From UHGV virus genome UHGV-0885819: a stretch of 13,646 nucleotides of DNA; one strand, written 5' to 3'. Source of the DNA: a virus. The notes beneath the pieces were generated by a model. That model worked only from the letters and a program-made list of their open reading frames with translations, searched no databases and had not been told where the DNA came from. Positions 1-3,691 of the stretch are shown here, piece by piece (position 1 is the first letter of the stretch; the number at the start of each line of letters is the position of its first letter). The translations under genes and the position numbers were made by a program.

Positions 1-335
1 AAGTGCTCGCAACATTCGCTTATGCGGATTATTGCCGTAGTGCCGCGACGCCGGGCGCAAGATGCAGAGATTGCCACGGTACAGGCCGTGCGGTTGATAT
101 AGCCAAAACGGAGCAGTGGGGGAGAGTTGTTGAGAAAGAGTGCGGAAGATGCAAAGGCGTCGGTTATTCAAGGATGCCAGCAAGCGCCGCATATCGCGCT
201 GTAACGATGCTAATCCCAAACCTTACCCAACCCACCTGGTCACGCACTGTTAAGCCGCTGTATGACGCTCTAGTGGTGCAATGCCACAAGGAAGAGTCAA
301 TCGCAGACAACATTTTGAACGCGGTCACACGTTAG
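1..335 (+). CDS. Q: Late antiterminator Q, C-terminal part only (5' end lies outside the window; stop TAG 333-335)
   Basis: Translation ends ...ADNILNAVTR and contains a CxxC...CxxC zinc-binding pattern (CRDCHGTGR...CGRCKG). It lies directly upstream of a lambda-type pR'/tR' leader. The GTG at 3 in the ORF track is not the real start. Confidence 0.8.
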   Translation, partial: VLATFAYADYCRSAATPGARCRDCHGTGRAVDIAKTEQWGRVVEKECGRCKGVGYSRMPASAAYRAVTMLIPNLTQPTWSRTVKPLYDALVVQCHKEESIADNILNAVTR

Positions 336-377
336 CAGCATGATTGCCACGGATGGCAACATATTAACGGCATAATA

Positions 378-413
378 TTGACTTTTTGAATAAAGTTGGG
401 TAAATTTGACTCA
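378..413 (+). promoter_or_regulatory. Late promoter pR' (-35 TTGACT 378-383, 17-nt spacer, -10 TAAATT 401-406, start near 413) with the Q-utilisation (qut) region
   Basis: Hexamers with canonical spacing seen directly. The sequence is nearly the same as lambda pR' as I recall it, and the distance from the predicted start to tR' (about 190 nt) matches the lambda 6S leader. Confidence 0.7.
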
Positions 414-605
414 ACGATGGGTTAATTCGCTCGTTGTGGTAGTGAGATGAAAAGAGGCGGTGCTTACTACCGATTCCGCCTAGTTGGTCACTTCGACGTA
501 TCGTCTGGAACTCCAACCATCGCAGGCTGAGAGGCCTGTAAAATGCAATCCCGAAACAGTTCGCAGGTAATAGTTAGAGCCTGCATAACGGTTTCGGGAT
601 TTTTA
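413..605 (+). ncRNA. Short pR' leader transcript (lambda 6S RNA equivalent) ending at tR'
   Basis: Inferred from the promoter start and the downstream intrinsic terminator; no protein-coding potential in this interval. Confidence 0.5.
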
Positions 606-608
606 TTT
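548..608 (+). terminator. tR' rho-independent terminator
   Basis: Perfect 10-bp inverted repeat ATCCCGAAAC (548-557) / GTTTCGGGAT (591-600) enclosing an inner GCAGG/CCTGC hairpin, followed by TTTTATTT (601-608). Confidence 0.8.
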
Positions 609-683
609 GGGTCAGTCGTATAAAGGTCATTACGGAAGGCTGTTAACCTTCTTATCGTGGTTCGAGTCCACGCTGTCCCGCCA
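609..683 (+). tRNA. tRNA-Asn (anticodon GTT), about 75 nt with encoded CCA
   Basis: Manual cloverleaf: acceptor GGGTCAG/CTGTCCC (one T-T mismatch), anticodon stem GAAGG/CCTTC, loop CTGTTAA, T-arm CGTGG-TTCGAGT-CCACG, discriminator G, CCA. Anticodon loop and T-arm resemble E. coli tRNA-Asn; the D-arm is atypical. Confidence 0.65.
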
Positions 684-688
684 AATAT

Positions 689-764
689 GCTGGTTTAGCT
701 CCAATGGTAGAGCAGTCGCCTTGTAAGCGAATGGGTAGCGGTTCAAGTCCGTTAACCAGCACCA
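689..764 (+). tRNA. tRNA-Thr (anticodon TGT), 76 nt with encoded CCA
   Basis: Manual cloverleaf: perfect 7-bp acceptor GCTGGTT/AACCAGC, D-arm GCTC-CAATGGTA-GAGC, anticodon loop CTTGTAA, T-arm AGCGG-TTCAAGT-CCGTT, discriminator A, CCA. The G27-A43 arrangement matches E. coli tRNA-Thr as I recall it. Confidence 0.75.
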
Positions 765-851
765 TAACTGAGCCGTAGCTACTGGCTATCCTGGATTCAT
801 CAGTGATAGTTATGCTGCGGCCTTCTACACATGACCTTCGTGAAAGCGGGT

Positions 852-886
852 GGCATGAGGTTGCGCTAACAACCTCCTGCCGTTTT
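852..886 (+). terminator. Stem-loop with a short T-run upstream of S (weak terminator or processing structure)
   Basis: GGCATGAGGTT (852-862) pairs with AACCTCCTGCC (871-881) at 10 of 11 positions, followed by GTTTTG. The equivalent hairpin is present in lambda. Confidence 0.3.
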
Positions 887-1006
887 GCCCGTGCATATCG
901 GTCACGAACAAATCTGATTACTAAACACAGTAGCCTGGATTTGTTCTATCAGTAATCGACCTTATTCCTAATTAAATAGAGCAAATCCCCTTATTGGGGG
1001 TAAGAC

Positions 1007-1330
1007 ATGATGATGCCAGAAAAACATGACCTGTTAGCCGCCATTCTCGCGGCAAAGGAACAAGGCATCGGGGCAATCCTTGCGTTTGCAATGGCGTACC
1101 TTCGCGGCAGATATAATGGCGGTGCGTTTACAAAAACAGTAATCGACGCAACGATGTGCGCCATTATCGCCTGGTTCATTCGTGACCTTCTCGACTTCGC
1201 CGGACTAAGTAGCAATCTCGCTTATATAACGAGCGTGTTCATCGGCTACATCGGTACTGACTCGATTGGTTCGCTTATCAAACGCTTCGCTGCTAAAAAA
1301 GCCGGAGTAGAAGATGGTGGAAATCAATAA
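1007..1330 (+). CDS. S: Class I holin S (107 aa; three consecutive ATG codons at 1007, 1010 and 1013, the third matching the lambda S105 start)
   Basis: Protein [39 protein letters not shown]... is almost identical to lambda S as I recall it, with three predicted transmembrane segments and a G-run ahead of the start. Confidence 0.9.
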
Positions 1331-1790
1331 TCAACGTAAGGCGTTCCTCGATATGCTGGCGTGGTCGGAGGGAACTGATAACGGACGGCAGAAAACCAGA
1401 AATCATGGTTATGACGTCATTGTAGGCGGAGAGCTATTCACTGATTACTCCGATCACCCTCGCAAACTTGTCACGCTAAACCCAAAGCTCAAATCAACAG
1501 CCGCCGGACGTTACCAGCTTCTTTCACGTTGGTGGGATGCCTACCGCAAGCAACTTGGCCTGAAAGACTTCTCTCCCAAAAGCCAGGACGCAGTGGCATT
1601 GCAGCAGATTAAAGAGCGTGGCGCTTTACCGATGATTGATCGCGGTGATATTCGTCAGGCTATCGACCGTTGCAGCAATATCTGGGCTTCACTGCCGGGC
1701 GCTGGTTATGGTCAGTTCGAGCATAAGGCTGACAGCCTGATTGCAAAATTCAAAGAAGCAGGCGGAACGGTCAGAGAGATTGAGGTATGA
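1314..1790 (+). CDS. R: Endolysin R (lytic transglycosylase, 158 aa)
   Basis: Protein [39 protein letters not shown]... matches lambda R in sequence and length. Its start overlaps the end of S and its stop overlaps the Rz start (ATGA). Confidence 0.9.
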
Positions 1791-2302: not shown

Positions 2303-2803
2303 ATGACCCAGCATATTGGCGTAAAACTGATTAACGCCTTTCCGATGACGAGACAGGCATATAACGATTTTCGTGGCTGGCAGCTTCCTGCCGGAGAAAA
2401 CGGCGAGGAAGAAGGCTATCTGGTTGAATATCTGGATGGCGGAAAACCTAACACCGATCGCTTTGATGGCTACGTTAGCTGGAGTCCAAAAGAAGTATTC
2501 GAAAAGGCTTATCGTCCGGTATCAGGGCTAAGTTTCGGCCTTGCCATCGAAGCACTCAAACTGGGTAAGAAAGTTACCCGCGCTGGCTGGAATGGGAAAG
2601 GCATGTATCTGCAATTAGTTCAGCCACCGCAATCAGCCACTCCGAATGATTGGCGTTATGACGTTACATGTGGTGACGAGTATACATTTGTTCCTGGTGT
2701 AAAACTTCTTCCCTGGATTGGGATGAAGACTGCTGATTGTAAATTTGTTCCGTGGTTGGCGAGTCAGACTGATGTTCTGGCTGAAGACTGGCAAATCATT
2801 TAA
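2303..2803 (+). CDS. 166-aa two-domain accessory protein: unrecognised N-terminal domain plus a C-terminal DUF2829-like (Tad2-like) domain
   Basis: Clean ORF in the post-lysis accessory slot. The C-terminal half carries GWNGKGM and a [17 protein letters not shown] tail, which I recognise as DUF2829 hallmarks. The domain call is from memory, not from a search. Confidence 0.75.
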
Positions 2804-3036: not shown

Positions 3037-3375
3037 ATGAACGACCAGCAAATCGAAAAAGAAATCGTTGAGAAAGGCAAAACGGCACCGCGCGTTACGC
3101 CAGACCATATCGAAAGCATTATTCTTGCGGAAACGTACTTCACTGCTGCTGATGGGGCTATTGCAACTGGCGATGACTATCACGACAGTTTGGCTCTGCT
3201 GACATTTTGTGTATTGACTCTACAAAATGGCTTCACCGTCACCGGTGAAAGCGCTTGCGCCAGTCCTGAAAACTTTGATGCAGAAATTGGTCGGAAGATT
3301 GCCCGGCAAAATGCTGTAAACAAAATCTGGATGCTCGAAGGTTACTTGCTGAAGCAGAAGCTAAGCGAACAGTAG
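3037..3375 (+). CDS. Conserved phage protein of unknown function (112 aa), possibly the N4 gp49 / Sf6 gp66 family
   Basis: ORF preceded by an AGGG Shine-Dalgarno-like motif. Motifs YFTAADG and GESACASPENFDAEIGRKIA look familiar from lambdoid prophage proteins placed ahead of terminase genes; the family assignment is uncertain. Confidence 0.75.
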   Translation: MNDQQIEKEIVEKGKTAPRVTPDHIESIILAETYFTAADGAIATGDDYHDSLALLTFCVLTLQNGFTVTGESACASPENFDAEIGRKIARQNAVNKIWMLEGYLLKQKLSEQ

Positions 3376-3478
3376 TTATTACAAAAGCCATTCCCTACAG
3401 AGTGGCTTTGACAATGGCTTATACCCTACACGGGATAACTTAACTGATATCCCTTTTAACGGATAAACGGAGCCAACA

Positions 3479-3691
3479 ATGGCAGAGATTATTCCCATGA
3501 CTGAAGAACAGAAATTCAAGTTAGAAATTTACCGACTGCTATCTAAGAACAATTCAGCGGCAGAGGAAGCTTTTGCATTCATTGGTGCTGACCAGCTGAA
3601 ACTGGAATTGTTCAAGTTGCACTACAACGATGGCGGTGCAAATCCAGACTTCACATCTCGCACTATCGAAGCGGTGCGTAAATCGAAGTAA
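3479..3691 (+). CDS. Small hypothetical protein (70 aa)
   Basis: ORF with GGAG 8 nt upstream of the ATG, predicted helical, no recognisable motif. Sits immediately upstream of the small terminase gene. Confidence 0.55.
   Translation: MAEIIPMTEEQKFKLEIYRLLSKNNSAAEEAFAFIGADQLKLELFKLHYNDGGANPDFTSRTIEAVRKSK

Follow-up and report, generated by a model that had tools for sequence, protein, structure and literature searches.

Why should a temperate phage carry two tRNA genes directly behind the terminator that precedes its late operon, and what might they contribute to the infection? The question is raised by a 13,646-nucleotide stretch of viral DNA (UHGV virus genome UHGV-0885819; hereafter the window), which is late-region DNA from a P22-like (Lederbergvirus) phage and in which a lambda-type Q gene, the late promoter pR' and the terminator tR' are followed by the lysis genes S/R/Rz and then by the genes for terminase, portal, scaffold and coat (Table 1). 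The Q gene is incomplete and extends past the left end of the window. The tR' hairpin has a folding energy of -26.9 kcal/mol (z = -6.66; none of 200 shuffled sequences is as stable), and the 5' end of the tRNA-Asn gene lies 3-4 nt past its T-run. As holin S is the first protein gene downstream, the tRNA cassette forms part of the late-operon leader.

Table 1. Features of the late leader region, with window coordinates.
Feature	Position	Strand	Basis
Antiterminator gene Q, lambda-type, 3' part	3..335	+	Open reading frame; 'antitermination protein Q' in matching records; near-identical to lambda Q
Late promoter pR' (TTGACT-17-TAAATT)	378..406	+	Promoter scan; homologous to lambda pR' by alignment
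Intrinsic terminator tR': hairpin 547-601 plus UUUUUAUUU	547..608	+	RNA fold; near-identical to lambda tR'
Segment substituted relative to lambda: mobile tRNA cassette, 161 nt	605..765	+	Alignments with exact boundaries
tRNA-Asn(GUU), 75 nt, discriminator G73, encoded CCA	609..683	+	ARAGORN; Rfam; covariation
Spacer AATAT, 5 nt (AACAT in phage 21, Sf6 and phage L)	684..688	+	Alignment
tRNA-Thr(UGU), 76 nt, discriminator A73, encoded CCA	689..764	+	ARAGORN; Rfam; covariation
Holin S, first late protein gene 3' of the cassette	1007..1330	+	Open reading frame; 'holin' in matching records

An earlier note on this DNA had described lambda-like flanks with about 160 bp replaced immediately after tR', and the alignment bears this out. 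The flanks match lambda at about 97% identity; homology is lost within the tR' T-run and regained at AACTGAGCCGTAGC (window 766), lambda 44780-44944 (165 nt) being exchanged for window 605-765. Short words shared by the two segments, such as TAAGCGAAT, prompted the idea that the lambda segment is a decayed copy of the cassette; their global alignment, however, reaches a z of only 1.2-1.3 over shuffled or random lambda segments and is equalled by 12-16% of these controls, and the reading of the lambda segment as a relic is therefore rejected. A consensus scan of window positions 1-1400 returned pR' as the sole sigma-70-like site, which gives no sign of a separate cassette promoter in that interval and leaves Q-dependent readthrough as the only evident route of expression. 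As the note had also proposed, the cassette would thus depend for its expression on Q carrying polymerase through tR'.

On the minus strand, the same scan of positions 1-1400 found no promoter; an antisense region would here span 609-1006. In Kapi1, a phage with the same cassette, an antisense signal over the tRNAs is clear in the transcriptome, and the Salmonella prophage BTP1 shows a comparable antisense signal between its tRNAs and holin gene (PMC12922286). Further downstream, open reading frames of 166, 112 and 70 aa lie between the Rz and small terminase genes (window 2303-2803 and 3037-3691), in the place of Kapi1 hypothetical genes that include Kapi1_043, reported as the most highly expressed gene of that phage (PMC12922286).

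The two loci had been read as Asn-GTT and Thr-TGT tRNA genes with encoded CCA ends, and the tRNA finders proposed as a check accept both of them. ARAGORN calls exactly two tRNAs in the whole window, tRNA-Asn(gtt) and tRNA-Thr(tgt), and the Rfam tRNA model RF00005, with a gathering score of 29 bits, matches the former with 55.3 bits (E = 7e-10) and the latter with 61.5 bits (E = 1.5e-11); no other Rfam family matches above threshold anywhere in the window. The minimum-free-energy fold of each gene is the cloverleaf, and the CCA ends are encoded at 681-683 and 762-764. The anticodon arm of tRNA-Asn reads GAAGG-CUGUUAA-CCUUC and that of tRNA-Thr GUCGC-CUUGUAA-GCGAA, the latter with a G27·A43 mismatch, a U28-A42 pair and G39. 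In the acceptor stem of tRNA-Asn, U4 (window 612) stands opposite U69 (window 676), and a second mismatch, U13·U22 (window 621/630), lies in its D-stem; these are the T-T mismatch and the atypical D-arm that the note had remarked upon. The identity elements used by the E. coli synthetases (G34, U35, U36 and G73 for AsnRS; G1-C72, C2-G71, G35 and U36 for ThrRS) are all found in the respective window tRNAs. With only 62% identity to host asnT and 71% to host thrU, neither tRNA is a recent host copy. Natural variation supports the structure of tRNA-Thr further: four pairs (3:70, 5:68, 6:67 and 49:65) show compensatory double changes, 94.7% of cells are paired, and the covariation score is equalled in 0 of 500 shuffles. 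In all 18 variants G27·A43 is unpaired and U28-A42 constant, while the acceptor stem has accumulated compensated changes; pairs 30:40 and 31:39 vary in 1-2 of the 18.

The cassette is an already known, annotated mobile module of lambda-like and P22-like phages. Both window tRNAs are 100% identical to the copies in phage 21, Sf6, HK446 and Kapi1, and with respect to phage 21 and Sf6 the cassette differs by one spacer base only. At least 80% of the cassette query is covered in 59 phage records, E. coli prophages carry it in 353 out of 5,426 complete genomes, and at least 120 IMG/VR contigs contain it. It is annotated as tRNA-Asn plus tRNA-Thr in Sf6 ('similar to phage 21'), Kapi1, mEp506, SfI and others (GenBank records with the annotated pair: AF547987, MT813197, PV340542 and NC_027339); the HK446 record (NC_019714) has no tRNA annotation. 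In phage 21, Sf6, HK446, Kapi1, mEp506 and SfI the pair occupies the same place as in the window, between tR' and the holin gene, and in the IMG/VR matches listed it always stands right after a terminator T-run plus ATTT. What lies upstream differs. The cassette follows a 21-type Q and tR' in phage 21 and Sf6, and a phage-21-type tR' again in phage L, whereas in the window, HK446 and Kapi1 it follows a lambda-type Q/pR'/tR'. The latter is the minority arrangement: among the 120 IMG/VR matches listed, the upstream tR' is mostly of the phage-21 type, and about 11 are lambda-type as in the window. IME10, the best overall match of the window (96% identity over 94%), has the same Q and lysis genes and no tRNA in the slot, which marks the slot as a variable 'moron' site; the Q-to-S interval of IME10 (NC_019501 15317-16855; L015) is ~140 bp longer than that of the window.

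The content of the slot varies as well. The IMG/VR matches listed (L016-L135) comprise 99 Asn+Thr arrays, seven Asn+Gly(UCC) arrays (e.g. L022) and four with Asn alone, together with seven more to which Phe(GAA), Arg(UCU) or Gly(UCC) has been added (e.g. the Asn-Phe-Thr-Arg(-Gly) arrays of L059 and L076); Klebsiella phage Mulock (L008:1201-1520) also has an array of this family. On one contig (L117:1359-1434) the tRNA-Thr gene is chimeric, phage-like in its 5' third and identical to host thrU from about nt 26, and is directly followed by a gene that is 1 nt off host glyT. Recombination inside the tRNA seems to have picked up the host thrU-(tyrU)-glyT operon here, and the Gly(UCC) genes of the arrays may plausibly have been acquired in this way. 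In the Salmonella P22-like phages L cII-101 (L007:784-855), ST160, PS3 and ST-32, the tRNA-Asn is identical and is followed by a diverged tRNA-like sequence of 72 nt that retains the acceptor and T arms of tRNA-Thr, is annotated as tRNA-Leu(TAA) and receives no ARAGORN call; this second gene may have decayed or may have been re-targeted. The specificity of HepS, for which the HepS paper gives tRNA-Thr(GGU) as the main and the UGU species as a secondary target, does not explain this variant.

The most direct indication of function comes from tRNA-Thr. Phage tRNAs have lately been reinterpreted as countermeasures to tRNA-cleaving immunity, and one such study shows that P2 OLD, the effector of the classic P2-lambda interference, kills as a nuclease that cuts host tRNA-Thr(UGU) at 28|29 and 40|41, inside paired CNG motifs; cleavage of Lys(UUU), Asn(GUU) and Val(UAC) is slower (Govande 2025, NAR, PMC12445682). 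In the same study, the tRNA-Thr(UGU) of phage 21 ('tRNA-Thr21') withstood cleavage, protected Old+Gam+ cells and, when expressed from a plasmid, restored ACA decoding, and its resistance is credited to C28U/G42A and a shorter anticodon stem (PMC12445682). The tRNA-Thr of the window shares the UGU anticodon with ThrU, the primary OLD target, and is 100% identical to the experimentally tested genes of phage 21 (AJ237660) and HK446 (NC_019714); it is the same molecule that was shown to resist OLD and to rescue when expressed from a plasmid. Instead of CUG/CAG at nt 28-30/40-42 within the 5-bp stem of host thrU, it has UCG/CGA together with G27·A43, and with C28U/G42A it falls into the OLD-resistant class that is formed by tRNA-Thr21 and tRNA-Thr6 (PMC12445682) and by the tRNA-Thr of HK446, T4 and Bas32 (Derzhaev 2026, bioRxiv 10.64898/2026.07.10.737580). 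The window thus holds the very tRNA-Thr with which the role against P2 OLD was established, and the locus illustrates established knowledge rather than adding to it.

The extent of this protection is qualified in the second study. The preprint credits HK446 tRNA-Thr with 'strong counter-defense' for the OLD-sensitive phages HK97, HK542 and Bas34, and reports that a single tRNA-Thr neither rescued lambda nor relieved OLD toxicity in recB cells; HK446 is stated there to encode a protein inhibitor of OLD, Oad2, and the authors doubt that the tRNA is the main anti-OLD device (bioRxiv 10.64898/2026.07.10.737580). Gly(UCC), which recurs in the slot arrays, is named there among the five tRNAs that OLD depletes most (bioRxiv 10.64898/2026.07.10.737580). 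The rescue tests of both studies ran from plasmids rather than from the native late-operon locus (PMC12445682; bioRxiv 10.64898/2026.07.10.737580).

The tRNA-Asn of the cassette receives no discussion in the available portions of these two OLD papers (PMC12445682; bioRxiv 10.64898/2026.07.10.737580). Overlooked in the description of HK446, it nevertheless shows every change expected of a nuclease-resistant variant (Table 2). For the PARIS nuclease AriB, the targets are Lys(UUU), Thr(UGU) and Asn(GUU), all cut at 40|41, and recognition requires U36-A-A-U39-C40|N41 as well as U16 (Belukhina et al., PMC12409363). Compared with the host copy, the window tRNA-Asn is without both CNG motifs and without U39, C41 and U16, and the AriB determinants U39, N41 and U16 are changed in tRNA-Asn and tRNA-Thr alike. 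By comparison of the sequences, then, the defined determinants of both OLD and AriB are altered in both window tRNAs. CNG loss is not universal in the tRNA-Asn lineage, given that seven of the 120 IMG/VR matches listed (Klebsiella type) have CAG/CUG or CUG/CAG at these positions; the motifs arise there through compensatory changes.

Table 2. Nucleotides at the positions recognised by OLD and AriB in host and window tRNAs.
Position	Host asnT	Window tRNA-Asn	Host thrU	Window tRNA-Thr
nt 36-41	UAAUCC	UAACCU	UAAUCA	UAAGCG
nt 16	U	A	U	A
nt 28-30/40-42	CGG/CCG	AAG/CUU	CUG/CAG	UCG/CGA

We offer only as a tentative proposal, which we hold to be possible but somewhat short of probable, that tRNA-Asn is a resistant replacement for a secondary target of OLD and AriB, that U4·U69, U13·U22, A16, C39 and the loss of the CNG motifs are evasion features, and that the cassette may blunt P2 OLD and PARIS-like systems during late expression. 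The role of tRNA-Asn bears on the wider question of whether resistant tRNAs come as matched sets in small temperate phages. Against PARIS the set would be incomplete: tRNA-Lys(UUU), the prime PARIS target, is absent from the window by ARAGORN and from the complete Kapi1 genome, and as tRNA-Lys is required against the PARIS system that was studied, the Asn/Thr pair alone should not defeat that system.

Taken as a whole, the locus is probably best understood as a mobile late-leader cassette whose main role is to provide stand-ins for host isoacceptors cut by Toprim nucleases of the OLD and PARIS kind, with extra decoding capacity as a second benefit. The cassette, having no evident promoter of its own, would be made mainly when Q lets polymerase from pR' pass tR', and host tRNA-processing enzymes would presumably excise both tRNAs from the late transcript. 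Activated P2 OLD kills infected cells chiefly through cuts at the anticodon-stem CNG motifs of host tRNA-Thr(UGU). The phage tRNA-Thr, which also reads ACA but lacks these motifs and has a shortened stem, survives and keeps the late proteins translatable, an effect demonstrated with the identical sequence on plasmids; the phage tRNA-Asn is predicted to substitute likewise for the secondary target tRNA-Asn(GUU). The second and compatible gain would be added decoding capacity for late genes rich in ACA and Asn codons. Two further points weigh against a role in counter-defence. The cassette is expressed late, whereas the triggers of OLD act early, and codon supply could by itself explain why the cassette is retained, given the ACA enrichment of the late genes. 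The first point is sharpened by the Q gene itself, whose fragment in the window (3-335, the C-terminal 110 codons) contains three ACA codons: making the antiterminator calls for tRNA-Thr(UGU) at a stage when the cassette is not yet expressed, which poses a timing problem for counter-defence.

The second point deserves closer attention. In the late genes of the window, ACA accounts for 13.0 per 1000 codons and 22% of Thr codons, with Asn at 45.4 per 1000; the corresponding values are 14.1 per 1000, 25% and 52.2 per 1000 for the late genes of Kapi1, compared with 8.1 per 1000, 11% and 35.7 per 1000 for those of lambda, which is without the cassette, and 5.4 per 1000, 10% and 37.7 per 1000 for a sample of 41 E. 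coli genes. Late-gene ACA usage in the window is thus 2.4-fold that of the 41-gene host sample (Fisher p = 6e-6) and 1.6-fold that of lambda (p = 0.03), and the codon comparison that the note had recommended finds ACA and Asn commoner than in the host sample. If the cassette served solely to supply codons that the late genes over-use relative to the host tRNA pool, with nuclease resistance incidental, then co-transcription with the late operon would lift decoding just when the structural proteins are made, the usage above both the host sample and lambda would be accounted for, and the array variants with added Arg(UCU) and Phe(GAA) would fit; the OLD study moreover describes host thrU as the sole ACA reader and as low in abundance (PMC12445682).

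We nevertheless consider this account, taken alone, unlikely. The same cassette stands behind different types of Q and tR' and before late genes of podovirus, siphovirus and myovirus type, and a mosaic module found before such different gene sets is not co-adapted to any one of them. Codon supply alone does not predict the lost CNG motifs, the loss of U39 and U16 or the invariant G27·A43 mismatch, and, according to both studies, E. coli thrU fails to rescue where the phage tRNA succeeds (PMC12445682; bioRxiv 10.64898/2026.07.10.737580). Nor can low GC be the cause of the ACA enrichment, since the window has a host-like GC content of 50% and no general A-rich bias. Codon supply, which has real support, is better regarded as complementary to counter-defence: a phage whose late genes rely heavily on ACA is left in need of the very tRNA destroyed by OLD, and the two functions are compatible.

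Much less probable is the suspicion, voiced in the earlier note for tRNA-Asn, that one or both genes are non-functional relics carried passively. The two U·U mismatches of tRNA-Asn prompt it, and the altered second gene of Salmonella phage L, if decayed, would be a precedent, but the sequence of tRNA-Asn is invariant in phage 21, Sf6, phage L and Kapi1, that is, even beside the decayed neighbour. Among 13 distinct natural variants, U4·U69 is retained in 11, including two diverged lineages in which neighbouring pairs have co-varied, and U13·U22 in all 13. Compensatory double changes affect five pairs (5:68, 6:67, 7:66, 28:42 and 29:41 in canonical numbering), with 90.1% of cells paired, among variants retrieved with a pattern in which the D-arm and some of the T-arm of tRNA-Asn were held constant. 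The RF00005 score of 55 bits and the presence of the AsnRS identity elements also speak against a relic. On this comparative evidence, U4·U69 and U13·U22 are conserved traits of the lineage and not decay, and the suspicion is not supported for tRNA-Asn. The earlier interpretation of the locus was otherwise largely correct, and is in part supported by the present analysis.

It is also highly improbable that the tRNAs are an adaptation to lysogeny that makes up for a host tRNA gene broken by prophage integration. tRNA genes are the integration sites of many prophages, and the idea is raised for HK446 in the discussion section of the 2026 preprint (bioRxiv 10.64898/2026.07.10.737580). Kapi1, however, which has the same cassette, integrates in argW and leaves that gene intact (PMC8787464); its cassette, instead of lying at attP, is separated from att and int by 15.5 kb, and encodes Asn and Thr(UGU) rather than Arg tRNAs. 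The att and argW data of Kapi1 thus largely refute att-site compensation, against which there also stand the low identity to asnT and thrU and the position of the cassette past a terminator that stays shut in lysogens. The proposal that the tRNAs are primarily a processing signal, at which cuts by RNase P and at the 3' end detach the leader and terminator hairpin and set the 5' end of the late mRNA, with decoding secondary, draws on the constant 3-4 nt between T-run and tRNA-Asn in every context examined, but is scarcely credible in view of lambda and IME10, which have the same leader and lysis genes and no tRNA, of the conserved anticodon arms and identity elements, needless for a mere signal, and of the rescue of ACA decoding by plasmid-expressed tRNA-Thr described in the OLD study (PMC12445682).

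A cassette of nuclease-resistant stand-ins, the reading favoured here, invites comparison with the other phage tRNA sets. The anti-PARIS set of the T5 type shares Thr(UGU) and Asn(GUU) with the window, two of its three anticodon species, and substitutions in the tRNAs of both phages fall on shared recognition positions, namely nt 39 and 41 and, for the T5 Lys and Asn species, nt 16. T5, however, includes a tRNA-Lys that the window pair lacks, identity between the window tRNAs and their T5 counterparts is only 61-64%, and T5 is a virulent phage with a large cluster (about 25 annotated tRNA genes), in contrast to the two-gene late-operon cassette of a temperate phage.

In P1 (L013:1849-2002) the Asn(GUU) and Thr(UGU) genes are likewise adjacent and in the same Asn-then-Thr order, and N4 (L014:952-1201), with Asn, Ser, Thr and Pro genes, also places Asn before Thr. 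The tRNA-Thr genes of P1 and N4 are related to that of the window (81% and 87% identity), whereas their tRNA-Asn genes, 91% identical to each other, are only 58-62% identical to the window gene and form a separate lineage. As the Asn lineage of the window is thus distinct from those of P1, N4 and T5, the pairing of Asn with Thr arose more than once. P1 also differs in that its tRNA-Thr retains the CNG motifs and its tRNA-Asn retains U39, unlike the window copies, and in that its pair is expressed from another operon context than the late leader.

A third parallel concerns the slot itself. Stx phages such as 933W are said, in an account from 1999 by Plunkett et al., to carry ileZ-argN-argO between Q/pR' and stx, that is, in the same variable slot as the window cassette, past the late promoter and terminator and before the first late gene. 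The ileZ, argN and argO tRNAs read the rare codons AUA, AGA and AGG and are classically explained by codon supply. The anticodons of the window cassette, GUU and UGU, are not those of AUA, AGA or AGG readers, although some arrays in the slot elsewhere add Arg(UCU).
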